NCBI GenBank assembly: GCA_045837725.1
Contig: JBEWZL010000215.1
Span: 1 to 64,000 of the forward strand
Source: Vermamoeba vermiformis
Taxonomy: Eukaryota
Length of the DNA: 64,000 nt
Reading direction: 5' to 3'
Below, piece by piece: positions 2,936 to 51,746 of this stretch (positions are counted from its first letter, which is position 1; each line of letters opens with the position of its first letter). A program made the translations under genes and the position numbers. Under the pieces are notes generated by a model. It was given only the letters and a program-made list of their open reading frames with translations. It had not been told where the DNA came from and ran no database searches.

Positions 2936-4468
2936 TTATTTATGCATATGATATGGTTTAAAACACTCAACATGAAGCACTACATTACATACATCACACT
3001 TATAAGCTGCAGAGCTGTTCTTCTTGCAATGTTCACACCTCTGTCGCTTGGCAGCAGGCTCAATCAAGTGTTGTCGAGTTTTTGAAGGGCTAAGAGGAGC
3101 CAGAACTGGAGTATGTAATTCCATAGCCAAATCAGTGAGGAATTCACTCATACTAGTGTATTTATCTGTAGCTGAAGTGCAGATCAAGTGTGCATTGGTC
3201 AGTGCAATGTAAAACAATCCTTGAAAGATTGCACGCTTCCAACTGACTGTACGATGCTTAGGAAAGTGAGCATTGATGTATCTATCAGCCAAATCAACTC
3301 CGTGCATCCAATGGTTGTAATCATTAACAACACTAGGTATGACTCGCTTTGCACCTCCAGGCTTCGTTGTGTCAGTTTCCTCCTCGGATGAACAGTTTGT
3401 GAAGAAGCAACAAGGTTTTTTATCCAAGAATTTCAGAGCAATGACTTCATCATTTCTATTAATTGCTGTCCAAGAACCTCTTGAAGTGACTGTCATTTTG
3501 TCCCAAATTGCAGTGGGATGGTTAACTTGACAAGCTAAAATGAACTTGAATCCTCGTTCTTGTAATGTATCCATCAAATCATAGCCACCATAGAAAGAGT
3601 CCACAATAATAACAAAGTTTGTTGATGGCAGTTGGTCGGCAAATTGAACAACCAAATCATGAACAGATGGGTGATCTCCCAAATAGAACCAAAAGCCATA
3701 AATAAACCCTTTGTTATCACACATTGCATACAACTTCAATCCTGTTGCATTGGGTTTTCCTCGGACATGTTGTCTGTATCTAAACCTTCCTTTGAACAGG
3801 ATCAATGTTTCATCGATAGAGATAAACGGAAACGGACGCCACTGTTTTTGAGAAGCTGCCACTGTTTGCTTTGTGATAAATTCAATGTCACAGAAGATGA
3901 ACTTTCTTATTTGTAGCCAGCGATCCCGTGACATGCCAGAGTTGCGAATAAAATCGTTGCCAAAGATGCCACTGTTCGAAGTAGGCTTGGCCCAATATTT
4001 CTCAAATGCAGGCTGAGGACAAAGACCCATCACAATTTGGATTGCTAACCAGGTTTTAAGCTCTTCTAAGTCAATGTCTTTCCAGTTTGCATTAGAAGAA
4101 CTGCCATTGAGCTCGGCATCTTCTACTTCCTCTTCAATTTCATCTGATGAATCATCCTCCTTGACTTGCTCATCCTCAGTCCATCCTGGAGTGTTTGTTC
4201 TCCCTCTTTGGTTAGTGCAATCAATAATGTGCTGCCAAACTTCGTTATTCCAGATCAAATTCAACGAATCAAGGGGAGTGGAGACATGGCGTCCATTAGT
4301 TGCTCCACAATGCTTAGTGTTGAACTGCATTGCAGGGGGAGTAAAGTAATCACCAGTCCATGTGCCATATCTATGAACAAAGTCTTCAGCCTTTAATTCC
4401 TTGAAATTGACAATAGGAGGGACCCGGTCATCAGAGCTGGGCTTTGAATTTTTTTTCTTGGGTGGCAT
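2936..4468 (-). CDS. piggyBac-family (PGBD-like) DDD transposase, 510 aa, intact and intronless
   Basis: Catalytic-type motifs SIDET, VDSFY, GVDLAD; KPNATGLK motif; MSRDRW; YNHWM; C-terminal Cys-rich domain CEHC...CDVCNVVLHVECFKPYH; basic N-terminus (PPKKK). Confidence 0.93.
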   Translation of the reverse strand: MPPKKKNSKPSSDDRVPPIVNFKELKAEDFVHRYGTWTGDYFTPPAMQFNTKHCGATNGRHVSTPLDSLNLIWNNEVWQHIIDCTNQRGRTNTPGWTEDEQVKEDDSSDEIEEEVEDAELNGSSSNANWKDIDLEELKTWLAIQIVMGLCPQPAFEKYWAKPTSNSGIFGNDFIRNSGMSRDRWLQIRKFIFCDIEFITKQTVAASQKQWRPFPFISIDETLILFKGRFRYRQHVRGKPNATGLKLYAMCDNKGFIYGFWFYLGDHPSVHDLVVQFADQLPSTNFVIIVDSFYGGYDLMDTLQERGFKFILACQVNHPTAIWDKMTVTSRGSWTAINRNDEVIALKFLDKKPCCFFTNCSSEEETDTTKPGGAKRVIPSVVNDYNHWMHGVDLADRYINAHFPKHRTVSWKRAIFQGLFYIALTNAHLICTSATDKYTSMSEFLTDLAMELHTPVLAPLSPSKTRQHLIEPAAKRQRCEHCKKNSSAAYKCDVCNVVLHVECFKPYHMHK

Positions 4469-21116: not shown

Positions 21117-24100
21117 TTACTTGTTGGCACGTTCCAAAATTTTTTCTATTGACAAACCACCGAGCAATTCCATCTGAGACAGTTTGATGTCAAAGTTCTT
21201 CTTCAAATTAGAAGACAATTCGACTGACAACAAAGAGTCGAGACCCAATTGCGTGAGCGGCGCGGCGGGGTTGATAGACGAGGGCTCGATGCCGAACAAC
21301 TTGGCCACGAGACGTGACAGTGACTCGATGGACACGGCAGTCTCGCCAGCACCATCGCCAGCATCGTGGTGAGCGCGATAATCGATCAAGTGCTCGACCT
21401 TCGACTTCATGAATGGGAATTGTTCGCCCAAGTGCTTGAAGTTGAAGTTACCAAATACCCATTGCACCACGCTGTCTTCGCTGATCATCAAGCGGACCTG
21501 CTCGAAGACTTGCTTGCTGGTCAAACCGCTGCTGACACCACGGAGACGCAAGATCTGTCGCTTCTTGTAGTCTTCGGCCAAGACACCGACATCTTCCACG
21601 GCAGACAAGTTGAGCACACTGACACGCTTGAAACCACGTGATCGGAGCTCGAAGGCGTACTCGTCGAGGTAGCTGTTACCAGCGGCGTAGTTGGCTTGAT
21701 CAGCGTTACCAAAGACAGATGAAATTGACGAGAACAAGACCACAAAGTCGACGGTGTTGTCGGCAGGGTTGAAAGACTCGATCAAGTTGCGACCACCGTC
21801 AATCTTGCAGTCAAGAGCACCGTGCAAAGCCTTCTCGTCCATGTTCTTAATGGCCATATCTTGCAGGGCCATGGCCATGTGCAAGATACCAACGCGAGAT
21901 GTGAGGAGACCTTGTTTGCGAGCTTCATCATAAGCAGCCTTGACGTCAGCCTGTTTGGCAACATCGGCCTTTTGCACTAGCACACGAACACCGCGTGCTT
22001 GAAGAGCGGTCAAATCTTCTTTCTGACTCTCGCTCAACGCAGCAGGACCTTGACGAGAGAGCAACAAAAAGCGAGCAGCACCTTCGTTGGACATGTACTT
22101 GACAGTCTCCCAGCCCACTGCACCGAGGCCACCAGAGATCACGTAGAGTGTCTCTGGGTGGAACACGCTGCGCTTGACGTTTTGTGAGTTGGGCCATTGA
22201 GCGCAATCAAAGTCAACGATGATCTTGCCCAAGTGCTTGCCAGACATGAGATATCTGAAGGCTTGTTCAATGTCACGAGCACCAAAGACCTTGTCAACAA
22301 TAGGGCTGATTGACTTGGACTCAGCGAGCTTAGCAACATCCTCCAAACATTTGCGCACGAAGCGAGTACCACGAGCGTCGTCCATAAGAATGTCCAATTG
22401 TACGGAGTAGAATGACAAGTCCTTCAAGAAGGGAGCCAAGCCAAGCGAAGAGTTGCCGAGGATATCGACCTTGCCGATTTCGATGAAGCGACCTCCCAAA
22501 TTCAAACTCTTCAAACCACATCTAAATCAAATCGTTAGTTATCATGCTAGACAAAGTAATTAAATTAAACACTTACTCGATAGCCTTGCCCTTGAGTGAG
22601 TTCAACACAACATCAACACCTTCGCCGTTTGTCAACTTCTTCACGTCCTTGCTCCAGATAGTGTGATCACGAGAGTCGCTGAACTTGGTCACGCCGTACT
22701 TCTCGTTCAAGAACTTGCGCTTGTCTTCGCTGCTAACAGTGGCAATGACTTCCGCACCCACGTGCTTGGCGAGCTGAATGCTTGATTGACCAATACCACC
22801 AGCACCAGAGTGGATCAACACTGTTTCACCAGCTTGCAAACGAGACTTGGCAATGAGAGCAGCGTATGAAGTGGCAAAGACGATGGGAATGGAAGCAGCT
22901 TGAACGTGTGTCATGTGATCGGGCTTCTTGACCACGAGTTCACGTGACACCTTGATGCGATTGGCGAGACATTCGTTACCAATTCCGAAGACTTGGTCGC
23001 CCTTCTTCAGGTCTGTCACGCTTGAACCAACAGCAACAACTTCTCCGGAGAATTCCAAACCGAGTTCAACTGGCTTCAAACCTCCGTTCTTGGCAGGGAC
23101 AGTAATCATACCGAGAGCCAACATCAAATCCTTAAAGTTCAATGCAGCAGCACGGACATCGACGAGAACATCTTGTTCACCGAGTGAAGAGGCTGAAGGC
23201 ACCTCGACGTAGTGCAGAGTGTTCAATTGACCACGAGTGCCAATCACTAGCTTGAAGTTGGTTCCGTCCAAGTTGGTCGACTTGGACAAGGGAGCTGACG
23301 GGTCTCGCTTGACTTCTTTGAATTTAGACACCCAAATCTTGTCGTCACGAATGGCAATTTCGTGATCGGAGAATTCCTTCGCCTTGACCAAATTGTGAAT
23401 TCGCTTGATCCACAGCTTCTCGGTCTCATGAGTAGTCTCATTAGCAAAATCGACCAAGAAAATGTTGTGGTTCGGGTATTCAGAGGCCAAAGAACGAGTG
23501 AATCCGATCAATGGAGCATCCTTTGACGAAGTGACAACGACGCTGCCGCTCTTGTTGGGCACTGGTTGCGCGCCGTGAGTGATCACGAACAAAGTTTGCG
23601 GTTGTTCAGCATTCACGATCCATTCTTGGGACTTGTGCAACAACTCTTCAACGGTGCCTCGGAACTTATGGTAATCGCTGTGAGAGTGGCCATTAGCAAC
23701 ACCATTGGGCTCTCCATTGGCATGACCGTTGGCAACACCGTTAGCGTGAGCTTCTTCGGTCTTATAAGTGGCAGGTTGAGTTTGAGCGACAATAATTGAG
23801 TGGCAAACTTCAGTGGCATCAGTTGCAACAGACACGTTGGTGAACTCTTGCTTGTTCAAGACCTTAGTCCAGCCTTCGCGTGAGAGAGCACAGTGGTTGG
23901 GACGAGTCTCCACGTCGGTGAAACCGTACCACTCGCGGAACAAGCCAAAGTACATGTTGAACCAAACGCCAGGACGAGTGGGTTCGATGGCCATAAACAA
24001 GCCATTAGGTACGAGCAAGTGCTTGATCTGAGTGAGCGCGAGATTGATGTCGGAAGTGATGTGCAATACGTTGAATGCCAAGACAATATCAACGGACTTG

Positions 24101-27100
24101 GTGTCAAAGCCTTGAGACGCGATGTCCTTGTTGAGATTGAGGATCTTGTACTCGATGTTGGGGTGATCAGGGAACATCTGTTGAGCGTCCTTGAGGAACT
24201 TTTGGGAGATGTCGGTGAAGGTGTACTTGAAATTAGCCTTGCCGTCCAACACCTTCAAGACTTCACGTGTCAAAACACCAGTACCTGCTCCAACTTCGAG
24301 GATGCGAATGACGCGATCTTTGTCACCGCTTTGAGCAATGACATTATCAACAGTCGAACCAACCACCTTGGCCAACTCCTTGAACGTAGGGCATGAAGGT
24401 GGTGCTCTTGTACAAGCGTTCCATCAAATCGTCGGTGAACAACAACTTTTGGGCCATGAGAGGGTCCTTCAACAGTTGCAGGAAGTTCTCACCGACACGC
24501 TTAACAGCCTCAGCTTCAGTAGCCATAACTCTGACGTTATCGATCTCGGTCTCAGCGGTGGCAGTGACCTCGGCTTGGCGGGCTTGAACGAGCTCATTGC
24601 ACCAAGCAATGTATCTTTGACGGTGAGGTTGAGCTGTTTCAACAATGCGAGGAGGCAAAGCCTTCAATGCCTTGCCAATGTAAGACACGCAAGCCAAGTC
24701 GAAAGACTTCTCCAATTTGCTAGCTTCGAGCATGTCAGGGACATCAAGAACAGGAGGCAACAAAGCAGATTCGTGAGCAGGAAGTTCCCAAGATTGCCAC
24801 TTGACAGTGAAGTTCTTCTGTTCGATGACTTCAGCAGTACCAATAGGAGCAACAATAACACCAGACACACGACCAATGACGCGCTTGTTCTCAGTGTCGT
24901 AAGCAACCAAATCTCCTTGGAGAGATCCTTCAGGATGACCAGCGGTAACAACAGGGCTAGTTCGCGAATAGACGGTGAACTTTCTGGTAGGCTTCTTGGT
25001 GGCAGGAGTGTCGTGTCGTCCTTGCAAGTCTTCAGCGTCGTACCAATCAATGCGATCAATGTGCACGGGTACAAATGTAGTGCTGAGGTTCTTGAATGAA
25101 GACAACATTGCTTGGAAGCAAATGTCCAAAACAGCAGGGTGCAATTTGAAATCGTCTTCGAAAGCGTTGTCCAAGTGGCTCACATCGACTTCAGCGAAGC
25201 CAGTCTTGTCAGACACTTGACCGGAGTTAGTAATGCCTTGGAAGAAGTGACCATAAGCCAAGTTGATGGACTTGAATCTGTCATAGCACTCGCGCTTGTT
25301 GAAGTTGCGCGACGATTTGGCAGCTTCACTTTGGATAGCTTGAATCCAGCTATCATCAGCATCAGAGGCTGTTGTAGCAGGTTGAGCAGAAGCATGAAGA
25401 ACCCACTCGACGTCATCCCATTGATCGGGCTTGGAGAAAACTTTGACAGTCTTATCACCCTCTTTGTTGACGGTGATGCGAACATCACGGTAGTCGTTGT
25501 CCGTCAAGGTCATTACGCGACCAATAGTGACGTTTGTGAGTGAAGTAGTGTTGAGAGCTTCCATGGCCATTTCAACGTATCCAGCGCCAGGGAACACAAT
25601 GGCGTCTTGAACTACGTGATCGCCGACCCATCTGTGCTTCTTTACCGACAATCTGGTAGCCCAAGTATCACGCTCGGGATGTTGTTGCTTGACGCCCAAG
25701 AGAGTGGAGTACATGCCCTCAGGTACAATACGGTTCATGAGGTGGTCCTTGTCTTCTTTCCAGCACACGGTGTTGAGGTGAGGATACGGCAACACATTGT
25801 TGTGCAAAGGCACGATAGGTGTCTCGGTACCCAATAAACCGTCGATGTTGATGTTGTAGTTGTAGGAAATCAAAGATCCAACAGCGTTCAAAATTGCGTT
25901 CTGCTCGGGTTGCTCGCGGTGCAAAGAGAAGAGCGAGGTCTTGCCACCACTTTGCTTGATGTTAGTACCAAGCACGGGGTGTGCGGTCAATTCTAAGAAG
26001 ATAGTGTCGGGACCAAAGCGTTCAATGCAACCCTTGACGGCGGCTTGGAATCTGACTGGACGTTCAATGTTCAACCACATGTAGTCAGCGGAGAACTTCT
26101 CGGTTTGCCAAGTACCGTAGACTGTGGAGAACAAAGGAATGTTGGGAGTGTGAGTCTCGTGCAAAGTGCGACCGAACAAAGCCAAGGCCTCCTCGCGGAC
26201 GGCACTCATGATGGGAGTGTGATAAGCATTGTTGATCTTCAAAATGCGGTTGAAAATCTTCTTCTCTTGGCACTTAGCAGCCAACTTCTGAATAGCATCG
26301 GGGTAACCTCCGACAGTAACGGATTCAGGGCTATTGTAAGCGGCAATCCAAGCGCGTTGATTCTCGGGGTTTCCATCTTCAGACACAAGCCAAGGCTCGA
26401 TGACGTCGGCGCTAGCTCCGATGGCAATCATTGTGCCCTTGCCGTCAAGCTTTTCGAGCAACTTTGAACGATAGTAGGCAACTTCCACGATTTGGTTAAG
26501 AGAGCACGAGTTAGCGGCATAAGCTGCAGCCATTTCACCAAAGCTGTGACCAACGACAGCTGAAGGAGTGATGCCAAGCGACTTCCAAAGATCAATCAGG
26601 GCGATCTGAAGGAAGATCAATGAAGGCAATGTGTGTTTGAGATTGTGCACGGCGTTAGGATCTCCACGAGTAGCGCCAAAGATACCAATGTCCTCTACCA
26701 GTGAGTAACCGGACACTGCTTTGAAGATTGAGTCGCACTTGTCGATAGCTTGACGGAAGGCTGGGAAGAGTTGGTAGAGTTGGCGACCCATCTCAGGGTG
26801 TTGAGGGCCTTGACCACCAAAGACCCAAACAAGCGGCTCGCGTTGTGAGGTTTGCTTGGGATCAGAGAAGACAGCATTGTTGGGAGTAGCACCGACACCC
26901 AACGACACATAGCGTTGAAGTTGTCTGCGCATCATAGTGGCTGAGAAATTTCGTGCAGTCATGGCGTTGTCAGCGGTAGCCTCAGGCACAAATGGAAGTG
27001 CCTTGGCTTGTTCAATACGAGTCTCAAGGGCCTTAGAAGTCTCAGCAGTCAACACATACAAGTAGGGAGCGTTGAGAGTGAACGGATAGTGAGACAACTT

Positions 27101-29095
27101 GGCGGGAGTGGTGCGGCCAAAACCTTCGATGATGACGCAACTAACCACAAGGTCAGAACAGTTAACAAGTAAATATCAGCCTACATACCCGTTGGAACCA
27201 CCAAAACCGAATGAAGAAACAGCCATCAATTTGCCAGCAGAATCGAACTTTTCGACTTCAGTTTGCACGCGAAGTTTCTAAAAAAGGAAATTAGATTCAC
27301 ATCTTGATTTTGGTTCCTTTATGTGCTTACGTGTTGGTCCCATTTAATGTCGGGATTAGGGGTCTCAAAGTTAATATTGGGCACCAAGCAACCTTTGTCG
27401 AGCATCAAGGTGGCTTTGATCAAACCAGCCATGAAACTGGCGCACTCCAAGTGACCTACGTTTGACTTGACAGAACCCACGCGCAAGATATCGGATCTTT
27501 CACCTCCAAAGACCTCTCCGATAGAGTTAGCCTCGATAGGGTCTCCAACTTTAGTTCCTGTAGCGTGAGCCTCGACATAGTAAACAGATCGAGGGTTGAC
27601 TCCGGCAGTTTGTGCTGCTCTTTTGAAAGCCTCTTGTTGAGCATCTACAGCAATATAATTAATGACCGCTTGCAAAGTAGGCCTAATAGTCCGAAACTTA
27701 CCTCCGTTGGGCATAGTCAGTGAAGGGGATCGCTTTCCGTCAGAGTTGCAAGCTGATCCACGAACGACACAGTAAATGTGATCACCGTCTCGCAAAGCAG
27801 CCTCCAAGGGCTTGACAATAACGACACCGCAGCCTTCTGAGCGCACGTAGCCATCGGCACCTTTGTCGAAGGATCTGCAACGGCCGTTAGGTGAGAGAAC
27901 GCCGAGCTTGCTGAACTCAATCATCACAGTAGGATCAAGAATCATATTGACACCTGCGTAAGAGCCATCAGCAAACATAGTAAAGATATTCCGCGGGAAA
28001 ATTCGATCGAATCGGGAAATTAAAACTGGAAGGCGGATCTTCGGGGGAAATTGAATACATACCACCGACTAGGGCCTGGTCACAATCGCCGTCACGAATA
28101 GCCTTGCATGCTTCATGGAATGCAGTCACTGAGGATGAGCAAGCAGTATCAATGCTCATTGAGGGACCTTGGAGATTGAACACGAAGCTGATTCTGTTGG
28201 CGTTGATTGAGAGCGTGCAGCCAGTGATAGAGTATGATGTAATGGTGTCTCGGTCATGCGCAGCAACACCGTACTGTTCTTCCATGCCTACACCAACGAA
28301 AACTCCCGTGCGCGATCCGTTGTATTTAATTCCCGAATCCTCCAATGCCGCTAAAGAAACCTTTATTTGAGGTTAATAATGAATTCACATTCAATATATA
28401 ATATGCACGTACCTCTAAAAGCATTTTCTGTTGAGGATCCATGCACTCTGCTTCACGTTTTGAGATGCCGAAGGCTTCGTTATCAAACTCGAAGATTCTA
28501 TCGACAAAACCGCAATAAGATGTGAGTGCTTTCGATGGACGCTCCTTGTCTGCAAGAAAGTAGGTAAGTAAGAGCTAAAATGATTTAACCGCCACAGATC
28601 GGTTTCTCTAATTACTAAAAAAAATTGTATTTTCGCAAGTATTAATTTTGTGCACTAGGGCGTTCGGTTAAATTGATGTTCTATTAGATCCTTAAGTTTG
28701 AGACCAGTCTCACTTTCAGACCCTTAAAATGTCGGATCGGATTGTGAACCGAAAAACAATTGAAAAATATCTTTATCAAATACAAAATATGTGACGCGTA
28801 AAACGCATTATAAGTATCACATTTAATGCATTGATCGTTGAAACGAAAGTTATGCGTCTGGATCGGATACCGCGGATCAGATTTGTATTTCCGTTTCTTA
28901 ATTTGTTCGAAAGGCTGATATTGTTGAAAAAAAGTTAAACGTACCTTTAGATGAATAGTAGCGAGCATTCCAACGATCCATCTTGGCCTCTGAAATGCAA
29001 TCCTTTCGGTTGACCAAGTTGTTCCAGAACTCGGCCGGGGAGTTACCGGAGCCTGGAAATCGATTGGCAACACCAATAATAGCTAAAGGCTGCAT
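21117..29095 (-). CDS. Highly reducing iterative type I polyketide synthase KS-AT-DH-MT-ER-KR-ACP, no thioesterase; multi-exon
   Basis: KS DTACSSS / EAHATGT / NVGHLE; AT GHSFG and AYH; DH HVVQDAIVFPGAGY and HPAVLD; MT ILEVGAGTG; ER LIHSGAGGIG; KR GGLGAVG and YAAGN; ACP LGLDSL. Confidence 0.95.
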
Positions 29096-30065: not shown

Positions 30066-31503
30066 CTACTGGCTATTTGGTCTCTGGAGGTACAATCCGA
30101 AATCACGCGTCGTTGCGACAGTCGGACCTTCGTTGTCGTAAAGGCCACGTGTGATCCATCGCTTGTCAAATTTGTTTTGGATGATTGTAGCCAAAGGCGT
30201 CTAAGAAAGAAACATATCGTAAGTCAATGCTTCAGTGAGCAGTATATCACGTACTGTGCGCCAATAAGACACCACTTGTTTTGGGTGGGAGGTTACTTTG
30301 CAGAATCCTTTGCCGGCTAGTTTGATTCTCAGATCATGCTCGAGCCTTTCCTTGAAGCCTAGCATTCAAAAGTTAGCCGCACATCGTAGAGGTCAACTGC
30401 AGTAAGCAAAAATAGCAAGTACAGTTACGCTAACGTACCAGGAAACCACGTGTTGCCGCCAGCAAGAACTACGTTAGCTAAAGTGCCGAACGCCACTTTC
30501 GGATCGGCATCACTGGCAAGTACTGTGTCGTAGATCTCATCGATTAAAGGTTTGCGCTCCGTATCGTTGGTGAGGGCTGGATTGAATATGGTTTCAGGGG
30601 CCAAAAATAGCTCTTTGGTCAGTTTAATTGGTTGTTCGTCAATAGTGTACGATGGTAACTCGCTGTCTTCTTTGAGCAACAGTTCGTTTGGATTTAGCGC
30701 GACGTAACACTGGTTCTCTTTGATATATCTGCGAGGAATCGATAAATCACTTGTCCCTAGGTACGAGTCATTGGTTAAATACCTAATGATATCCTTCTTA
30801 ACATTAGCGTCACTTGAAAGCGCGGTAACTCTGTTAGATAGCCAGCCGTTCACATTAGCACCGCCGTACAGAATGTCTTTCACAGCTACAATACGGCAGT
30901 TCCTGATGACCACAATCTATTTGGAAGTTATGAGAATTTCGCGCTTGAAGTCGACAGTACCCGTACCTGTGTTAAATCATCGCCAGATTCAATGATAACG
31001 CCAAAGTTATTGAACAGTCCTGCTTTGTACAACGCGACTTCTGCGGTGGTCATCAACAACAACGCCGGGATAGTGAACGTTTCAAATAAGATCTGCACGA
31101 GTTTTTCTACTTCACTAGCGGGAGCTCCAGCTCGTATTAGCATTATAAGCTAATAAAATGATTGGCGTTACGCATTACGTTCAACAAAAGACAAAACTTA
31201 CACCATTTTCTTCTGGGGCTACGCGGAGCTGGTTGTAAAGAGTATCGTGCAATACTTTCTAAATAATGCACCATCAATATTTAGTCGTGAGCGTTAAAGC
31301 GTTCGGATTTGCCAATCGAATTTTTAAAAATTTACCTCCCAGTCATCCCAATTTACAACTCGACCTCCAACCACGGGGTATCTGTGTTAAGTATTATTTT
31401 AATTAATTATTGAGCGAATAAATACTTACTTTATAGTCAAAATGCCTGCTTTCGGATGCGTGTAACCTTTAAGCACGGCAGCGGGTGCGGTATAATGCTC
31501 CAT
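30066..31503 (-). CDS. Divergent actin-like protein lacking actin residues ~1-57; multi-exon
   Basis: Spliced product begins [57 protein letters not shown]. It continues through LFETFTIPA, IESGDDLT, IKENQCYVAL, FLAPETIFNP, NVVLAGGNTWFPG, VVSYW and WITRGLYDNEGPTV, all collinear with actin ~58-375. An in-frame stop lies upstream of the ATG. Confidence 0.88.
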
Positions 31504-31701: not shown

Positions 31702-34700
31702 ATGTTGGCAGCTTTTGGCTATGTCATGCCGTTATTGCACGGCCCCACGTTGAACTTTTGCGCAGATGAGGAAGCAAACAACAAAATTAAATTATCAAAA
31801 ATGGTGGTGGAGTCGAAAATTAGGTAAGTTACTTGAATATTATTATAGCGTGACTGATCACAAAATTCAGCAAACTATTCGCCAAAACGACTATTTTCTT
31901 AACGTTCAAAAGCGAGCTAGAATTTGACGTTGAAGGAAATCTAGAATTTCCCTTGCCCGACGGTGCAGTGATTAATGGCTACGGGTAAGCTCGATAAATT
32001 TCTACAAAAGTCAAATATTAAATATTTCTGAAGACTGGATGTTGATGGTGTTATTGCCGACGCCTCTTTAGTTCCAAAAACCAAGGCCGAAGCAGTATTC
32101 GAAGAAGGTACTGTACTTCGCATTGTTACATTTCTAGGTGCTAATGATTGTACAGAAAAACGTAAAGGTGTTGATCCCGGATTGGTTCAGCAAGTTAAAG
32201 GCAACATGTTTCAAACACGCGTATATCCTATTCGAGCACATGGCACTCGCACTGTCAAAATTGTTTACACCTCCGAGCTAGCGACGGGCAAAGATAACTC
32301 GGCGATCTATGCCCATCCCGTGCCGTTGGAGTACAACATCGACTTCGAGGCCAGGTGTGGAAGTGGTCTCCAACACAGACGACGCGCCGATCTTCGCGAA
32401 CGAAGGCTTCGGTCCTGTGCAATTCACTCGAACTGGCGGAAGTTTTGTGTGCAAGATTGAGCGACACGATTGGTCCATTCCCGATGCCTCGATCGCCGTG
32501 GTGTTGCCCTCACAAAAAGCAACGGAGTTGTACATTGAGAGCGCAGAGGAGCGGCAGTACTTTGCCATTAGTGACGACTTGCCCAAGTGCGACGAGCCTC
32601 GTAAGTTGGTCGGTGGTACTGAAGTTCCAAAACTAATCGTTTGATTCCTTCAGGCAAAGTTCCCATCAATGTCGCCATTCTGTGGGATTGCTCTGGCAGC
32701 AGAGCGACTGAAGTAAGTTGTGGCGATTGAGAGTGAATTTGACTGTGCTAATGTTACGCTTCAGGCCAAAGAGATCGAGCTCGTCGAGAAGTTCGTCGAG
32801 TCCTGTGGCGACAACCTGTCGATTGACTTGTACAACTTCAGTACCTTTGTCGAACCGAAGAAGTCGTTCACCAAACAGAACATGAATGAGTTAATCAGCA
32901 CTCTAAAGAAAACGGTTTATGACGGGGCCACACGTTTCGATACTTTGCGCTCAACAATAGCCACGAACAACTATGATTGCTTCTTGCTCTTCAGCGACGG
33001 CATCACCTCTCTCGGGGATAATTGTGCACCGCTAGACGAATCTGCTGTTGGCACAACCAGCCCTATTTATGCATTTGGTGCCAGCACGGGTGCATGCGAT
33101 CACAATTTCTTGCGCTTGTGGGCTTATCAAACTGGCGGAGTTTATTTCAACTTGCAGTCCAAGAGCACGGACATCGGCGACGTCGTCAAGTCAATTGGCA
33201 AGCCTGTGCTCCGATTGGTCAGTGTTCGGGGCACGAGCGACAACGATGTCGAGCAAGTGTATCCTCCTGCTCTAACTCCTGTGGCATCGACCAACAATCA
33301 TTACGTCGTTGTTGGACAGTTGCGCGCCAAAGAGACAGAAGTTACTGTGAATTACGGCTTCGGACTGAACGATGTACGCGTCACAAAGAAGTACAAACTG
33401 AACGGCAATGTGACTAACACTGGTAAGATTACGGTTCTTTAAAAAAGGCGACTAATCTCCTTAGGTCTTATCTCTACTTTGTGGGCTCAATACAAGTTGC
33501 ACTCTTTGCAGTTCTTGCCCGAAAAGAACAAAGATGAGATTTTAGCATTGGGCCAAAAATTCAACTTTGTGACCTCAGAAACCAGCTTACTAGTGCTTGA
33601 GACCGTCGAACAGCATGCAGAGCACATGATCGAGCCCGCCAAGTCACGCAAAGAAATGTACGAGGCGTACCACAAGCTGAAAGAAGATTTCGAGCGAAGA
33701 TTGGAGAACTGGGAGACTGAGAAGGTAGCTCTCGTTGAGCAAATGTGGGAGGGCAGGTAAGTCAGCGCATGAATCAATATGCACGAACTAACGCGTGCCT
33801 TGCAGAGTGGCTTGGTGGGAAACAGGCGCAACACCACAACAACAAGGTCTCGAATACCCAAGCTTCTCTTATCCTGTCTTTGGTCCTTCCCCACTTGCTA
33901 ATGGCGCGAACGTTCCCACTGACAATAACATGATTGTGATTGAAATCGGCTCTGGGCTCACTAAGGCCGGATTTTTAGGCGAAACCAAGCCTCGAGCGAT
34001 AGTTCCAACCATGATCGGCAGACCTCGTCACACCGGTGTCATGGTCGGCATGGGTCAAAAGGACAGCTATGCCGGTGAAAGCCTTGATACTGGTGGCGAC
34101 GCAGAGAACGAGGAATCGGCTTCGGTTCAAGCGTCAGTGGTGCTTCAGCCTTGGAGCCCCAACACACCCTACACTGAAGCGATCAAAAAGGCACCCAAAC
34201 CCCAACAATACGAGGTGTATCTCACCCAGAAGGCACAGTACGGCAGTTCACCTGCATTCTACTTTGACTGCGCCAGTCACTTCTTTTACGACGGCCGACG
34301 AGACACTGCCATAAGAGTTCTCGGCAACATTTGCGAACTCAAAGTTGAACAAGCACAAATGTTACGCATCATGGCCTACAAGTTCTCTGAGATGGGTGAA
34401 ATCGATCTGGCTATCGAAGTGTTCCGCAAGGTGTTAACGCTGAAGCCATTTGAACCTCAGTCTTACAGGTATGACCGTAGCGAGGGCACATTGATCGGTA
34501 CTAATCAAGGAGCAGAGACTTGGCATTGGAACTGGCTCGCAAAGAAGAGTTCCAAGAAGCAATTGATTTGATGTTCAAAGTCATTGTTGGCTACTGGCCC
34601 GCTGCCTTCCAAGAGATCGAAATCACCGCGCTGTTCGAACTCAACAACATGATTGCCAAGGCTGATCGCAAGGGCTTTAAATACGTCTTGCCTAAATTGC

Positions 34701-35196
34701 TGACACCCAAGCTCGTCAAAAACTTGGACGTTGATTTGCGCATTTCAATGGCTTGGTAAGGACCGATGGTAATTGCGAGCGTTGATCTAACGCGAATGTG
34801 CTGCAGGGACACTGACAACACCGATCAAGATTTGCACGTAAAAGAGCCCGGAGGTACCGTGTGCAGCTACTACAACCGATTCCCTGCCTCAGGTGCGATG
34901 ATGTCACGCGACTTCAGACAAGGTTACGGACCCGAAGAGTAAGCACAGGCTCAGGTAGTACTCATGCAACATAGCACTAACGAGTTCGCGTTAGGTACAT
35001 GATTCGCAAGGCTAAAAAAGGTGTCTACGAGGCTACGACTAATTACTACGGTGGCGGTGGCATGTGCGGTCCGACAACGATCATTCTTTATTTCTTCACC
35101 AACTACGGTCGCGAGAATGAGCGAATGACAGTGACTACCACACGCTTGGCAGATAACCGCTCGACAAACATTATTGGCAGCATAACGATCACTTAA
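31702..35196 (+). CDS. VIT + vWA-like + TPR + DUF2135 protein with an embedded actin N-terminal segment; apparent 1-nt frameshift at ~32354
   Basis: VIT ([25 protein letters not shown]); vWA-like ([21 protein letters not shown]); LWAQYKL...[44 protein letters not shown] region; [19 protein letters not shown]...[12 protein letters not shown]...NYYGG C-terminal DUF2135-type domain. Confidence 0.85.
33921..34079 (+). other. Actin residues ~5-57 (phosphate-1 loop + D-loop) inserted in frame in the VIT/DUF2135 gene
   Basis: [53 protein letters not shown] aligns without gaps to actin [53 protein letters not shown] (actin sequence recalled from memory). Confidence 0.95.
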
Positions 35197-35227
35197 GGTG
35201 CAGTTGTAGTAATACATTAAAACTATA

Positions 35228-36527
35228 TTATTTATCTTCGATTGGTCTTCCATAGTCGTCGAACAGGTTGCATTTTAGCTTCCAGAACGGCTTCTTAATC
35301 CGCTCAAACAGCTGCTTGAATTCAGACGAGCGTTTCCTGTGATTTAATACCACAGGCAGTTCTTTTTCAGTGGCGGGGCCAATTGTAAAGGACAGTTCAC
35401 GAGGTCCGTCCATACCTTCAAAGTGCACGTATTGCAGATTGGCAGGCAGATTTTGCATGAGTAGTTGAATGGCTTTTGGATCCATAGTCATACCTAGTCA
35501 AATCGTTAGTTGCTTTGTTTTACCTTCTGAGCGGTCAGAAAAACTTACCTTTGTGCGTGTAGTTCTTAATCTTCTCGAGGATGCGCAGGATCTTGTCGTT
35601 ATCAACTTTATACAACTGATGAAAAGTGAATGATTCGAGCGATCTTCGGTCCAGTATTGCGTCGAGAAGTTGGGGCGTCAAATCGTAAAATCCGAGTTCC
35701 AAGATCGTGAGCTGTTTCAATGAGGCAAGAACTTGGCTCAACAGCTGTGAATTGATGTTGGAATTGTTCACTAATCGCAGCTCTTGCAATTCAGTCATAT
35801 TTTTAATGCACTCCAGTGCTTGTGGTGTAATTTTGCGGCACTGTCGCAATGACAAGATCTCGAGATTCTTCAACAGCGACAGAGACGAGTTGTCGAGCAG
35901 CACTTGACAGCTGTCAATGCGAAGCTCGCGCAAGGTTGGGCCATAGAAATTGCAAATCTTGGCCACAACGCGGTCATTGATCGCAGTGTGCGACAGATTC
36001 AGTCGACGGATGCGCGGCAGTTGATCCAACGCGTGGACCATTTCAGAGCTGTTGACTTTAGTGCCTGCCAAATTGAGTTCAGTGAGACCCGGCACTGCGG
36101 ATAGTGCATCGATAATAGTGGCTGTTGGGATTAGTTCGCAGTTGGACAGATCCACTCGCTTCAAGCCACCAAACCGTTTAGCGAGTGAATAGAGCATTTG
36201 ACCGTCGAATTTTTCTTTGGCAAACATGCGCCAGTTGAATGACGTAATGATGCTCCAGTACGTGGCGTTCCATCCGCGGCAAACCGTTCGCACTCTGAAC
36301 GATTTATTAATTATTCAAGCGTCTAAAAATTTCAGTATTTAAATGCTATTATTGTTGCTTGTAACTTACGACATTAAATCAATATTATCAAATTGGTCGA
36401 ACAAAATATACACTATGTCAACGGGCAAATCCAAAAAATCAATCGTGCCCTCGTTCATTCCATAAAAGGAGCCGATCTCATATTCGGTGGTCTCTTCCAC
36501 CTCCGTTTGCTCAATTTTCTCGTCCAT
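35228..36527 (-). CDS. F-box/leucine-rich repeat protein
   Basis: FLDLPVDIVYILF...VRTVCRGW F-box followed by LxxLxLxxC-type LRRs. Confidence 0.88.
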
Positions 36528-46623: not shown

Positions 46624-48814
46624 TTAAACATCATCAACAATAGCGTTGCAGTTATCATCAATGCCGTTCAGTACCTCGGCTTGTGGCATCACTTCATTTT
46701 GACACACGAGCACGCCCTCAATACAGGCAGTAGTTCCAGCAGTGCACGCGCCTTGACCGACACATCTACCGCACGACTGACCGACTTGAGGCACGTTGTC
46801 ATCGACTTGCCCATTGCAGTCGTTGTCAATGCCATCACACACTTCCACTGTGGGACCGACGAATCCTGAATTGCTTTGATATTAGTGAATGTGCTTCGAT
46901 GACACGTGTCAAACAGTGTCACTTACCAACGCACTCAGTTGAGCCGCAGAACTGTTGACCACGCTTGCAATGACTAGTGCCGTTGTAGACGAGGTCTGCA
47001 GGGGCATCTAGTGGCACACAATCAGTGGGCGGGACATTGTCATCGATCAGTCCGTTGCAGTCGTCGTCAATGTCGTTGCACGTCTCAGCTTGAGGACTGT
47101 TCGAACAGGACCCCCAGCCTCGACCAGCAACACATCCGCCAGGTGCAACTGAGACTGGTGCTTGACACGACATCAGACCTTGACACCAAGTTGGCGTTGG
47201 ACTGCCGCAGGTTGTCTTGTTGATCACTGGGAAATCATCCACCAGTCCGTTGCAATCATTGTCGCAGCCATCGCACACTTCAAGCGAGGGGACACAGCCG
47301 TTGCAATTAACACCTAAAAGATAGTTTGTTAGTGACACGTGTCAAATAGTGTCAAAATCGTACCGTCGTCAATGAGTCCATTGCAGTCATCGTCGAGGCC
47401 GTTGCAGACTTCAGCTGTGGGGCAGTGCAGCGGTGATCCACAGCGCACAAATCCTTCGTCAATTTGTCCGTCGCAATTGTCATCAATGCCGTTGCACTGC
47501 TCTCCTGGATCAGAACACAGCCACGTGCTCGACTGCTGACTTTGCGCCACTGACGTGCACGGTAATTGCGTGACATCGCCGCGGGGATTGGCAGCGGAGA
47601 TTGACGAGACAAACTGCGTCAAACACTGTGTGCGATTGCTCAAGGTACAACAGTCCGTGCGCAGATTGCAGTAGTGCGGGTAGTCCTCGTCCACTTCACC
47701 GTCGCAGTCGTCGTCGAGATTGTTGCACGTGTCGGGCGCACTCATTGCGAGCCAAGTGGAGCTGAGGCCAGCACTGAGCGTGGTGTCAATGTCCCATTTG
47801 TAGACTGTCGCGCCCAGACTCGTCACATTGCGATCAAAAGCGTGGAGTGACAGAGACAGCGAGCTGTAGTACGAGTAGAGCGTCACTTTGATTTTGAAGG
47901 TCTTGCCGTTGACTGTGATGCCCGTGGAGGACAACTGATTGATCAGATCTGTGAAGTACGTCCGCTCGCTGCACTCAAAGGTTTCGGAGTTAGACCACCG
48001 ATAGACCAATGCGATGTGCACGGACTTGCAGGCCGGTGCGTCGTTGAGTGGCGAGGTCAACACTTTGCCGCTGATCGGATCTGTGTACGTGCCCTGCAGA
48101 TACGACGCAATGCCGCGCAACAGCCCGTTGAATGGCTGGCAATCGCCGTACGAGATGAGTTCTCCATTGGAAGCAGTACATTGTTCGTCGATATAACTGA
48201 ATAATGATTGATAGTTTGATGAGTTTGTTTCGGATGTGGGCGCTGGAACAACAACGTGCGCTGCTTGGCGCGAAAGAGGGCAAGGTGATGTCGCGCAACT
48301 ACCACACACACCATTGCCAACGCTCGAGCAGTTAGTGATGTAGTTAGCTACGGGCATAAATGTACAACTAGAGGCGGAGCAACTTGATGACGAGCAACTA
48401 AATGTTTGAGGCAATTGAGCCAAGCCTAAGCGCATCCGCGTCGAAAAAAGTGGAAATACTATGTCTAAGGCACCCTTGATATGACCTAAGCACAAGCAAA
48501 ATTAATTAATTAGCTTTTTTTTATGGGGGTCAGTTAGCTCAGATTTTCTTGATAATTTTCCTACAATATTATGTACACGAAGATAAAATTGTTATAATTA
48601 TTGATTAATTACCAATAATGTATGATGTGTATAGTCCGGAGGTAGGTGCCGTGGTAGTTGCCTTATCAATTCCACTACTCATAACACCGACAATTGCCAG
48701 CGGATCTCCAGCAGGGTATAAATTACTGGCCTGGCCATTCTTCGTGGTTGAAACGAGATGGAGCAACGCAAAAAAAATAAACGCCCACAAAACACCAACT
48801 TTCAGGCCCGACAT
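46624..48814 (-). CDS. Secreted Cys-rich protein with multiple ExCNGxDDDCxGxIDD (MopE-related metal-binding) repeats
   Basis: Signal peptide MSGLKVGVLWAFIFFALL; about 7 repeats such as DTCNNLDDDCDGEVDE, EQCNGIDDNCDGQIDE, EVCDGIDNDCNGQVDD. Confidence 0.8.
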
Positions 48815-49006
48815 TGCAATATAATCATATAATACAATATGCACTAGTGTTTCGGGTTTGATTGAATTAATTTTAATTTGATTCTCTGGGAGGGATTTTT
48901 TGTTGACGCGTGTCAGTTGCGGATGTGTCACAAACGATGTTTTCATTTTTGCAAAATGATACTTTACTAGTAAACACACATTAAACAATAGTACAATTTT
49001 CATATA

Positions 49007-51746
49007 TTACAAAGTTGGATTGCTATCAAAACAGCATCTGAATCCCAAATCTGAAAATCGTTGGGTACTGGTGATAGTCTGATACACATCACGTTGCGTG
49101 CCTCGCTCACTTGTCCTAAAAGAGCCTCCAACCATCGCATAGGCGGCGCTGTTAGTCACAATTTCAAATAGATTTCCCGTCATGTCCCACACGGCTGTTG
49201 TATTGCCCGTGTTGGCGGACAAAATGCTCCAATCAGCACCGCACGCATATGGAGCAAGCGTGGCTGTTGGCATGAATGTGAACGCCGTACCGCTGCCAGC
49301 ATTGCCGAAGATGTTGCAGTACCTCGTGTTGGTATTACTCTGTTGGCACGTGCTCGGGTGCGCGGGACTGTAGCTGTAGAGACAAGAGGCATTGGTCGCG
49401 AGAGCAGCGCGCCACTCGGTCATGCTGCACAATCGTCCGCCCATGCCTCCGCAGACATCAGCTGCCTCGAGCGGGGAGATTTGTGTCCACGGCATGCGCA
49501 AGTTCGCTGAGCAGCCACGTGTCGCGTCAATCGTGTCTTGATTCGCCGTGGTCCAGCCATTGCCAAAGCCAAGGCTCGACTGCGTAGACGACGCGCGACT
49601 GATTTCGTACGATGTGATCCACAGCGATGAGCCCAAGAAAGTGACTGTTGGCTTGACAAATGTCGCTGAGACCGAGCCCTTTTGCGTGAAAACCTCGTCC
49701 ACAAGTCCGTCGCAGTCGTTGTCAATGCCGTCACACAGCTCAGTGCAGCCACCAGGCAATGAACTGCACGAGGCCTTGACCGCTGAACACGTCACATTGT
49801 TGGGGCCGTTGCAGACATAGGTGCCTGTTGTGCGACATGCGCCGTGCGAGACAGGGCTGCAAAAATATGTCAGAACACGTGTCAAAAGAATTGACTGATC
49901 GAAGACTTGCCTTCCATCGTCACTAGCGCACGGCAGACCCAGTTGCGGGACATTTTCATTCAGCACTCCGTTGCAGTTGTTGTCCAAGTTGTCGCAAATC
50001 TCCACGGCCGCAGCACACGAGGGATTGCAGACATTGGGCGGGAACGAGCACTGCCAGGCACCGCTGACACATTGCGCGGACACTTGAGTCGTGCATTCAC
50101 TTCTGTTTGCCGCAGGACCGACGCCACAAAGCTTCTTCACGTTATGAGGCACGACATTTTCATCGATTTGTCCGTCGCAGTTGTCATCAATGCCGTTGCA
50201 CATTTCTAAATGAGAGGTGAACTGACAGGCGTACGAACAGCTCTGATTGCCCGTCAAGTCGTAGTACCCTTGCTTGCAGCTTTGGAACACGCACTCGCCA
50301 TTGGAACACGCCCAGAGAACATTAGGATTGAGGTCTGCACAGCGCTTGTTGCACGCACCGCAGTGCTCAGAGTCGTTCTTTAAGTCAGGCTGTGAAGTGA
50401 TCTCTCCGTCGCAGTTGGAGTCCACTCCGCATGCGTCAATAGAACTCGCTGGGAATATTGCCCCGACACACTTGAGCTCGTTGTTTTGACACTTGACTGC
50501 ACCCAATGAACACACGCCATGAGCTGAACAGCCGCAAGGAGTATCCACTGCTATAGAGGATTGAAATGTAAGAGTTGGGTGTTAAGAATAACGACAAGCT
50601 AACTCTTACCAGGACACGAGTTGTTGAGGCAATTGGTCGGGACACATTCGCCCACCGAGCAATCAGTGCCTGAATAGCCTGACGTGCACGCACACCCACT
50701 CAAGGTGCAGACACCATTCGACGAGCAACAGAACGGACACGCTGCGAGGTGCGTTAAGGATCGTAGAACTCATACTAGAGGGCAGTAAGGACTTACATGA
50801 AGTGCTGTCAGACACGCCACAGGTCTTGTTCAGCGTGTTCACGTCAATCATGGACACGTTGCTGTTCTTTGTTTCAATGACCACGCTCTGCCAGAAGTGA
50901 TCGCGCGGCACAATGACAACAAGATCCACACTGAGCTGCGCTGTTTGTTCGACCTCTGCTGTCGACAGTCCCGCGCAGAGCACAACGACTGATGCAAGTC
51001 AATAACATGTACGTCTAGCTGGTGCAATATTGCGTACCTATGATGGCGAGCAATGTGGTAGATCTTTTTCTAAATAAGGAAATTGTGAACGCTGCAAAAA
51101 CTTGCAACAAAACGTCAATGCTGATTGCTGAGGATGAACTGATTTGGCGCTTTGGGCGTGGTGTATATATTATAATATCGTTTGATGGCGTATTAGTGGA
51201 AATATTCAAGTCAACCATAACGCGGATCTGCTCGTCTGAAACGAATCATTAGGCGTGTCAAAAAGTGTCATAATTTGTGCAAGCGGAAAAGGTGCAAATT
51301 AAATTGAATATTATTATTCGATATTTTTAGTATGATTATCAACTAAAATAAGTATCATCAACGGTTATTAAAAGCGAAATCCAAAAAGATTTTGATATAT
51401 ATTAACCAACAAATTATCCGCACTTACTTGGAATATATTTTACATCTATAACTACATATTTAGAGGCCTCTTCAGTCGGACCTGAAATCGTGGCTATGAT
51501 TGAAACCGCATCCGTTGAATTTCCACTTTTCCACACAACAGCGCCCTTGAAACGTATTAATACAATATTGTGGATATTAAAATAATGTTATACCGGTAAT
51601 TTGTTAATGATTTCGAAGTCAATTTGCGATGCGGCTGTCGTTGTCAATGCCTCCGCGAAGATCGTCCTGTCCACAGAATACTGCGCAGTGGTGCACGAAA
51701 TTATTGATATAATACATAGGACTAATACTACAGTTGATTTGTACAT
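49007..51746 (-). CDS. Secreted Cys-rich MopE-repeat protein with C-terminal FGE/SUMF1-like domain
   Basis: Signal peptide MYKSTVVLVLCIISIISC; EMCNGIDDNCDGQIDE-type repeats; C-terminal YEISR...PWTQIS...RLCSMTEW...WDMTGNLFE...GGSF...LGFRCC. Confidence 0.8.

Follow-up and report, generated by a model that had tools for sequence, protein, structure and literature searches.

The window, i.e. the whole stretch of 64,000 nucleotides that was analysed, belongs to contig C215 of a Vermamoeba vermiformis assembly (43 Mb, 309 contigs, introns of about 40-80 nt) and carries two genes arranged head to head. Gene A encodes a scaffold protein with a piece of actin in an internal linker; gene B encodes an actin-like protein devoid of the beginning of actin. 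Their features, in window coordinates, are the following:

30066..31503, minus strand: gene B, headless actin-like protein; 8 exons, 340 aa
31504..31701, no strand: gap of 198 bp between the start codons of genes A and B
31702..35197, plus strand: gene A, VIT-vWA-hybrid-(linker)-TPR-DUF2135 protein; 11 exons, about 1000 aa, Pfam VIT and DUF2135
32350..32360 (near 32355), plus strand: one-base frameshift in gene A in the sequence of this assembly
32686..32700, plus strand: MIDAS DxSxS motif in the vWA domain of gene A (aa 264-268)
33819..34148, plus strand: variable linker between the ITIH-like core and TPR-DUF2135, the cargo or bait position (aa 594-703; placed by family anchors)
33921..34079, plus strand: N-terminal piece of actin, residues 4-56 (beta1-beta3, P1 loop, first half of subdomain 2)
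34017..34070, plus strand: actin residues 36-53 including the D-loop, by alignment to host actin

RNA-type contigs from four runs (X1, X2, X6 and X11), three of them RNA by guess only although their contigs do skip introns, were aligned to the locus, and both genes are spliced in them. All seven introns of gene B coincide with RNA joints; eight of the ten of gene A are listed as such, the remaining two being implied by pieces of RNA contigs. The actin insert, which lies in frame in the open exon 8, is part of the mature message, since it is spliced to both of its neighbours: an X1 contig starts at 33849, crosses the insert and continues into the next TPR exon, while the upstream core exon and the insert are united in an X2 contig. 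The interval that separates the start codons, 150 bp long in L029, a locus of another species, is presumed to be a shared promoter. The frameshift in gene A is either an assembly error or a mutation of the strain; the frame is open at this site in the L029 orthologue, and none of the RNA contig pieces listed bridges it.

The scaffold of gene A

Over its whole length gene A aligns to the VIT-DUF2135 family, and its C-terminal part is shared by 4246 representatives. A profile of 79 family members matches, over positions 32-534, ITIH4 (E 3.7e-26), PARP4 (1.8e-19) and ITIH1 (1.9e-15), in agreement with the original prediction, which had recognized in VIT-vWA the architecture of the inter-alpha-inhibitor heavy chains; on this profile evidence the VIT-vWA-hybrid core of gene A is homologous to that of ITIH4. 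The MIDAS is intact, the DxSxS motif being accompanied by its Thr (aa ~328) and Asp (aa ~350) partners, and among the 79 members conservation is complete, or reaches 90% at least, at the DxSxS positions and the later Asp.

Evidence on the fold comes from a model of P0153, the best full-length relative among the best 150 of the 4246 representatives (35% identical to gene A), the scaffold of gene A itself being known from sequence. The model (pLDDT 87.5, pTM 0.87) is confident in the core, TPR and DUF2135 parts, and contains a single long disordered loop, 605-681, equivalent to the linker of gene A. It matches ITIH1 (Foldseek E 3e-22; Z 22.9, rmsd 7.7, 481 residues aligned) and, with the same fold, a protein of the Trypanosoma brucei flagellar doublet (9e5c; Z 18.0, rmsd 8.2, 473 aligned). 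No structural match was found for the DUF2135 fold by the whole-chain search, a weak probe of that domain. The macroglobulin and thioester domains of alpha-2-macroglobulin were matched neither by Pfam nor by sequence profile against the PDB, and no Pfam match to NB-ARC/NACHT, LRR or TIR/CC domains is present in the exons of gene A or in the relatives scanned. The N-terminus of gene A reaches 1.7 in a crude hydropathy window, as opposed to 2.3-3.3 in five prokaryote-type members, and no signal-peptide-like start is seen by this measure; the protein is presumably cytosolic.

The actin insert and gene B

The insert matches positions 4-45 of the 410 of Pfam Actin (E 7.5e-9) and retains S14, G15 and K18 of the P1 loop. 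When compared with the genome's own conventional actin, which is encoded as one identical protein by six loci (L002-L007), its residues 36-53 are identical at all 18 positions and its residues 7-35 at 14 of 29 (Fisher p 2.5e-4, slightly conservative, as the test was entered with 15/29, one above the aligned count). Both the identity of the loop and the drift of the rest, with the substitutions quoted, had thus been correctly read in the original prediction, the identity holding in full for the allele of the window: residue 41 is Thr here and His in contigs of the X1, X2 and X6 strains (environmental runs), which are left with 17/18, X11 having no coverage at this point. The divergent full-length actins L016 and L018, the two that were scored, keep 11 of the 18.

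The proposed comparison of silent sites gave a divided answer. In the window allele, 11 of the 16 non-Met codons of the loop are those of host actin (expected 6.0, P 0.005, the expectation being a crude null taken from the codon use of gene A), and an exact run of 26 nt is shared with host actin (P 0.009); for the His41 allele the figures are marginal (9 of 15 codons, expected 5.8, P 0.05). Gene conversion from host actin has therefore probably touched the D-loop, to judge from these codons, and contributed to the likeness in this strain. On the other hand, the loop differs silently from each conventional actin gene in five or six codons, and the paralogue C236 keeps 17 of the 18 residues at just 74% nucleotide identity, 9 of those 17 codons being different; both facts indicate selection on the loop, so that the claim of selection stands with conversion added to it. 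P0122, from another organism, keeps 15/18. The contig of L029 ends about 20 codons ahead of the insert position, just inside the linker exon. A query with the insert exon against proteins of 388-2000 aa returned no other protein combining actin with DUF2135 among the 120 of 204 matches listed.

The alignment of gene B to actin covers residues ~60-375 with 33% identity, and nothing in gene B matches the first ~52 residues; it carries the replacements Q137T, H73G, D154E, G158D and H161Q, the first two of which had been predicted. The insert (actin 4-56) and gene B are complementary and free of overlap, only residues ~57-59 remaining uncovered. Gene B is no relic: the same start point is found in P0124, P0126 and P0127 (336 aa; a metagenome species) and in P0125 (345 aa, Vermamoeba vermiformis); gene B is 76-78% identical to its orthologues P0124 and P0125, the three being invariant at 224 of 316 positions. 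Gene B is also headless in L029, a second metagenome species, where the head-to-head pair is retained at ~66% nucleotide identity; conservation of linkage amounts to one independent locus in one other species, L030 being the same sequence as L029. A metagenome scan with P0124 as query confirmed none of 596 candidates, and a second scan yielded two loci with one sequence.

The core of subdomain 1 of actin is built from the strands that gene B lacks, and lacks in four of four species (the window, the P0124 cluster, P0125 and L029). For this reason the folding of gene B most likely depends on the insert. A model of P0125 alone (mean pLDDT 45.5, 19-row alignment) is uninformative on this point. 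Binding between the insert of gene A and gene B is a prediction that we consider likely, and the unit is probably a split actin completed in trans by gene B, and not a lone loop as the original prediction had it. In the rebuilt chain the D-loop is kept at 15/15 residues, and gene B at 27/41 in residues 60-100 and at 76/275 in residues 101-375; in terms of surface residue sets, 6/32 are kept on the barbed face, 6/25 on the lateral face, 13/23 in the nucleotide pocket and 7/20 in the non-loop set of the pointed face, residues 61, 63 and 64 being retained. As judged from these alignments, insert and gene B would make up a split pseudo-actin with a host-like subdomain 2 and eroded filament faces. 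The search of the genome for another B-like gene gave none, and none lies in the ~5 kb upstream of C236.

A linear peptide, serving as bait or binding motif and refreshed by gene conversion from host actin, with gene B as an independent neighbour, is an unlikely reading of the insert. Such a bait would account for the excess of silent identity and for the exact 26-nt run, as well as for the actin pieces of C236 and P0122, which have no known partner. It would have no need, however, for the buried beta-strand pattern nor for the S14, G15 and K18 that the insert retains, and would leave to chance both that gene B lacks exactly these strands in all four species and that the pair is conserved in L029.

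As to the origin of the pair, an inversion was considered and rejected, as the order from VIT to DUF2135 is ancestral and unbroken across the insert. A phase-2 intron in codon 68 is common to gene B and to the C236 insert, and absent from 11 of 11 other scorable actin-like loci (six more being unscorable); it was not accepted as proof of common origin, and is a hint only, the codon pair holding a cryptic GT.

Cargo in the linkers of paralogues and relatives

The genome holds at least four DUF2135 loci. Whether the linker carries different host-protein fragments in other paralogues was a check proposed at the outset, and it turned out positive in three of three paralogues and in other amoebozoans. 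In C236 the linker contains actin up to residue 68 (E 9e-9) and a ubiquitin-like domain (6e-29) that is 76% identical to the organism's own polyubiquitin and lacks the terminal Gly-Gly; in C263, synaptobrevin (2e-17), V-SNARE_C (1.4e-6) and a weak ribosomal P-stalk-like match (0.003); and in C83, repeats of the Pol II CTD (1.7e-16), the open frame running unbroken through these, the end of the core and the TPR part. Microbial targets include SNAREs, ubiquitin, the P-stalk and the CTD. The first SNARE-like helix of C263 is without a SNARE Pfam match and resembles six other loci of the genome at 30-47%, and motifs like WH2/VCA and like the AGC tail, in P0143 and C263, are recognized by eye only.

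Among the relatives, the best 150 of the 4246 representatives were examined and 81 of these scanned with Pfam. In a quick tree built from 84 C-terminal regions (every labelled row, all ids below P0150 and every third other), 17 rows form a clade (SH-aLRT 99). Of its 11 rows with a linker of at least 140 aa, 9 have a host piece recognized by Pfam, the three paralogues among them; six rows are too short. In the other six of the nine, the linkers carry actin up to residue ~68 in P0122, a ubiquitin-like domain in P0139 (Amoeba proteus), 14-3-3 and a kinase without its first half in P0164 and P0194 (Arcella intermedia), a SNARE together with CTD-like repeats, these by pattern, in P0238, and Snf7 with PH in P0266 (Pelomyxa schiedti); in P0143 a P-stalk-like motif is recognizable by pattern alone, and P0140 has no recognized host piece. 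Several pieces are truncated (actin 5-63 of 410, kinase 154-263 of 263). Four of the nine cargo rows (P0139, P0164, P0194 and P0238) are N-terminally open fragments, among which chimeric assemblies are possible. The Pfam scan recognized no cargo in the Anaeramoeba, Adineta and P0005 members, and actin occurs in 2 of the 137 linkers screened, both of the P0122 cluster. In the quick tree gene A is placed outside the 17-row clade, with poor support for its position; the cargo pattern applies to it, therefore, by position and not by proven descent.

A linker that tolerates insertions might simply gather pieces of highly expressed genes, in a gene A that is itself decaying. Actin, ubiquitin and ribosomal transcripts would be abundant donors, and the frameshift near 32355 and the spread of linker lengths (44-876 aa in 122 members) would be as expected. 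Neutral debris of this kind is very improbable in the light of the following observations: in the exon 33806-34468, where at least 20 variants are present, 17 of the 20 scored are silent; gene B is invariant over most of its length across the three orthologues; the loop of C236 is kept although half of its codons have changed; and both genes are spliced in the RNA contigs.

A weightier alternative, if still a rather unlikely one, regards the cargoes as targeting modules, the pseudo-actin formed by A and B docking the scaffold on filaments and the others addressing it to membranes, ESCRT, the ubiquitin system or the nucleus. An intact D-loop, with residues 61, 63 and 64 kept, above an eroded barbed face is the expected look of a barbed-end cap, but erosion has also reached the pointed face, in its subdomain-4 half. 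Several cargoes are whole domains, and the near-complete 14-3-3, Snf7 and PH domains and the SNAREs with their membrane helices could be working modules; others are crippled, such as the ubiquitin without Gly-Gly or the half kinase, and unrelated pieces pointing to different places in the cell are stacked in single linkers (actin with ubiquitin, three SNARE-like motifs with a P-stalk-like tail, CTD with SNARE). The protein of the flagellar doublet (9e5c) shares the fold, and Dictyostelium Vwa1, a VIT/vWA protein, is cytoplasmic and has a role in development (PMC10539598).

A candidate trap and its likeness to known systems

The reading that we prefer, at about even odds (roughly 0.5), makes the product of gene A a cytosolic trap of the ITIH4 type, in which integrated decoys of host proteins serve as bait. 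A TPR-DUF2135 unit would close a rigid VIT-vWA-hybrid core with its MIDAS, the two being connected by a single exposed linker, and in amoebae this linker would have become a cassette for copies of the most conserved proteins of the cell. At the present locus the cargo would be an actin split in two, of which the linker provides residues 4-56 and gene B the rest in trans, so as to rebuild a catalytically dead and poorly polymerizing pseudo-actin whose subdomain 2 and D-loop look like those of the host. An enzyme of an ingested or invading microbe that recognizes folded actin would cut or bind the mimic; the linker would thereby be opened, and the vWA/MIDAS core would hold the enzyme or signal its presence, as ITIH4 does. 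As to the actin-targeting enzymes, a review (PMC7311988) describes the D-loop as a target of bacterial proteases, among which grimelysin cuts at Gly42-Val43 with a specificity that seems to depend mainly on conformation, leaves fragments that remain associated and, when injected, halts Amoeba proteus; the dependence on conformation would be a reason for presenting the loop on a folded actin. The bait or decoy proposed in the original prediction is strongly backed by comparative evidence, namely the diversity of the cargoes and the homology to ITIH4, with the split actin probably taking the place of the loop alone as its unit.

Several observations weigh against a trap. C236 and P0122 carry actin to ~68 without a known B-like partner, the loop bears the signal of conversion and differs at residue 41 among strains, and the assembly has the frame of gene A broken. 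No orthologue of gene A from another species shows the insert, the L029 contig stopping ahead of it, and gene A lies outside the cargo clade. A further point is that ITIH4 is secreted, and in the open-licence literature no precedent was found for a cytosolic trap.

Amoebae are a natural training ground for many intracellular bacteria and giant viruses, and to our knowledge their means of sensing or neutralizing effectors are poorly understood. A broader and more tentative proposal is that the trap belongs to an undescribed form of amoebal cell-autonomous immunity, in which cytosolic ITIH-like traps shared with bacteria have a bait loop that can be programmed with mimics of host proteins (actin, ubiquitin, SNAREs, Pol II CTD, ribosomal P-stalk, 14-3-3, kinase and ESCRT-III), one member building a decoy actin from two genes. 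If this were true, the contents of the cassette would list the host proteins attacked by amoeba-infecting microbes, protease bait and NLR-style integrated decoy, known separately, would be found joined in a new host group, and a first testable function would be available for DUF2135 proteins. An actin that is split in nature is unusual in its own right, and even with the cargoes as targeting modules, a headless actin completed by an embedded piece would represent a new kind of actin-related complex.

Among known systems, ITIH4 is the closest. With it gene A shares a homologous VIT-vWA-hybrid core, the MIDAS and a long variable region right after the core, the linker lying at the place that corresponds to the bait. 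In PMC7793589 the ITIH4 bait (633-713) is described as following the core, susceptible to proteases and variable among species, its cleavage leading to a non-covalent, MIDAS-dependent complex with the protease; ITIH4 is a plasma protein, whose bait is Pro-rich and unstructured. Gene A differs in having no signal-like start, in its TPR-DUF2135 C-terminus and in the recognizable copy of a host protein in the linker, apparently completed in trans. Alpha-2-macroglobulin, discussed in PMC7793589, is likewise a large scaffold with a bait that can be cleaved and varies fast, but its fold is unrelated, and gene A has neither a macroglobulin nor a thioester domain. The link of YfaP to a macroglobulin operon, which the original prediction had invoked, found no support in the open-licence PMC/bioRxiv literature. 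In this same body of texts no mention of DUF2135 was found, nor any description of cargo in the linkers of the family or of a split actin.

The prokaryote-type VIT-vWA-TPR-DUF2135 proteins, which are uncharacterized, have the same scaffold (33-36% identity over the full length), and in several of them the same linker holds the N-terminal portions of TonB-dependent transporters (CarboxypepD_reg, Plug); they differ in that many have signal-peptide-like starts and that their linkers are short (median 98 aa) and of low complexity. These two traits and the taxa of the Atlas suggest that they are bacterial. With respect to conventional actin and the actin-related proteins, insert and gene B together cover the sequence save residues ~57-59, but from two genes, with the catalytic Q137, H73 and H161 replaced and the filament faces eroded. 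In plant NLRs with integrated domains (PMC4759884 and others), copies of pathogen-targeted host proteins are fused to a scaffold in lineage-specific variety; gene A likewise carries a fused copy of a host protein, one that pathogens would target if the decoy reading is right. The cargo of gene A is housed inside a loop of an ITIH-like fold in which Pfam finds no NLR domain, and no split, two-gene decoy was found described for NLRs in the open-licence PMC/bioRxiv texts. Overall, the actin insert and its setting are real, conserved and probably undescribed, and gene A resembles the baits of ITIH4 and alpha-2-macroglobulin as well as the integrated domains of NLRs, being by its defining features a member of neither group.

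Cargo in the linkers of other family members

The linker between the inter-alpha-inhibitor-like core and the TPR-DUF2135 part carries other pieces elsewhere in the family, two of which lie at the following loci:

L021:5780-5959 (source genome, contig C236), minus strand: degenerate synaptobrevin-like stretch in the linker of the gene A paralogue (E 0.003)
L028:4652-5143, plus strand: hydrophobic, membrane-helix-like segments 3′ of a SNARE-like cargo (by eye)

The decayed state of the synaptobrevin-like stretch hints that cargoes decay and are then replaced. In protein P0238, too, a SNARE-like cargo is followed by hydrophobic segments resembling membrane helices (by eye) and, therefore, some members of the family may be membrane-anchored. 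In the prokaryote-type members P0021, P0203, P0207, P0211 and P0228, the linker holds N-terminal pieces of TonB-dependent transporters (CarboxypepD_reg and Plug; Pfam), which may be the same habit of capture as it occurs in bacteria.

Neighbouring genes

The window also contains (Pfam matches):

2936-4468, minus: DDE_Tnp_1_7 transposase ORF (510 aa, Cys-rich C-terminus), which we take to be piggyBac-like
21117-28372, minus: type I polyketide synthase (KS, AT, DH, MT, ER, KR, ACP), ending ~1.7 kb from gene B, the headless actin-like gene
35535-36314, minus: gene for an LRR protein, in convergent orientation to gene A
47329-50581, minus: two ORFs that contain Cu-binding_MopE repeats and, weakly, match CPL1-like

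Actin in other contexts

A full-length actin is fused to other sequence in the source genome:

L008, contig C191:8001-11186, minus: actin with a helical part on its N-terminal side and a further region on its C-terminal side

Sequence comparison finds a 26-nt exact run common to its D-loop region and the window insert; its relatives P0036, P0037, P0069 and P0070, which share this fusion, have vWA or Sec23-like matches (Pfam). Many short-contig matches from the actin scan of prokaryote genomes look like contamination; the actin genes L049-L053, L059, L068 and L071 (69-90% identity to amoebal actin) are carried by long contigs from bacterial genomes, among them those of cyanobacteria and myxobacteria.

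Among the matches listed in the homologue search with the insert exon, P0051 and P0082, one of them with Balamuthia mandrillaris as its named source, combine NACHT, TPR, DUF4062 and actin (precomputed Pfam). By domain content, these are STAND/NLR-like proteins into which an actin is integrated, and they may form a second amoebal decoy system.
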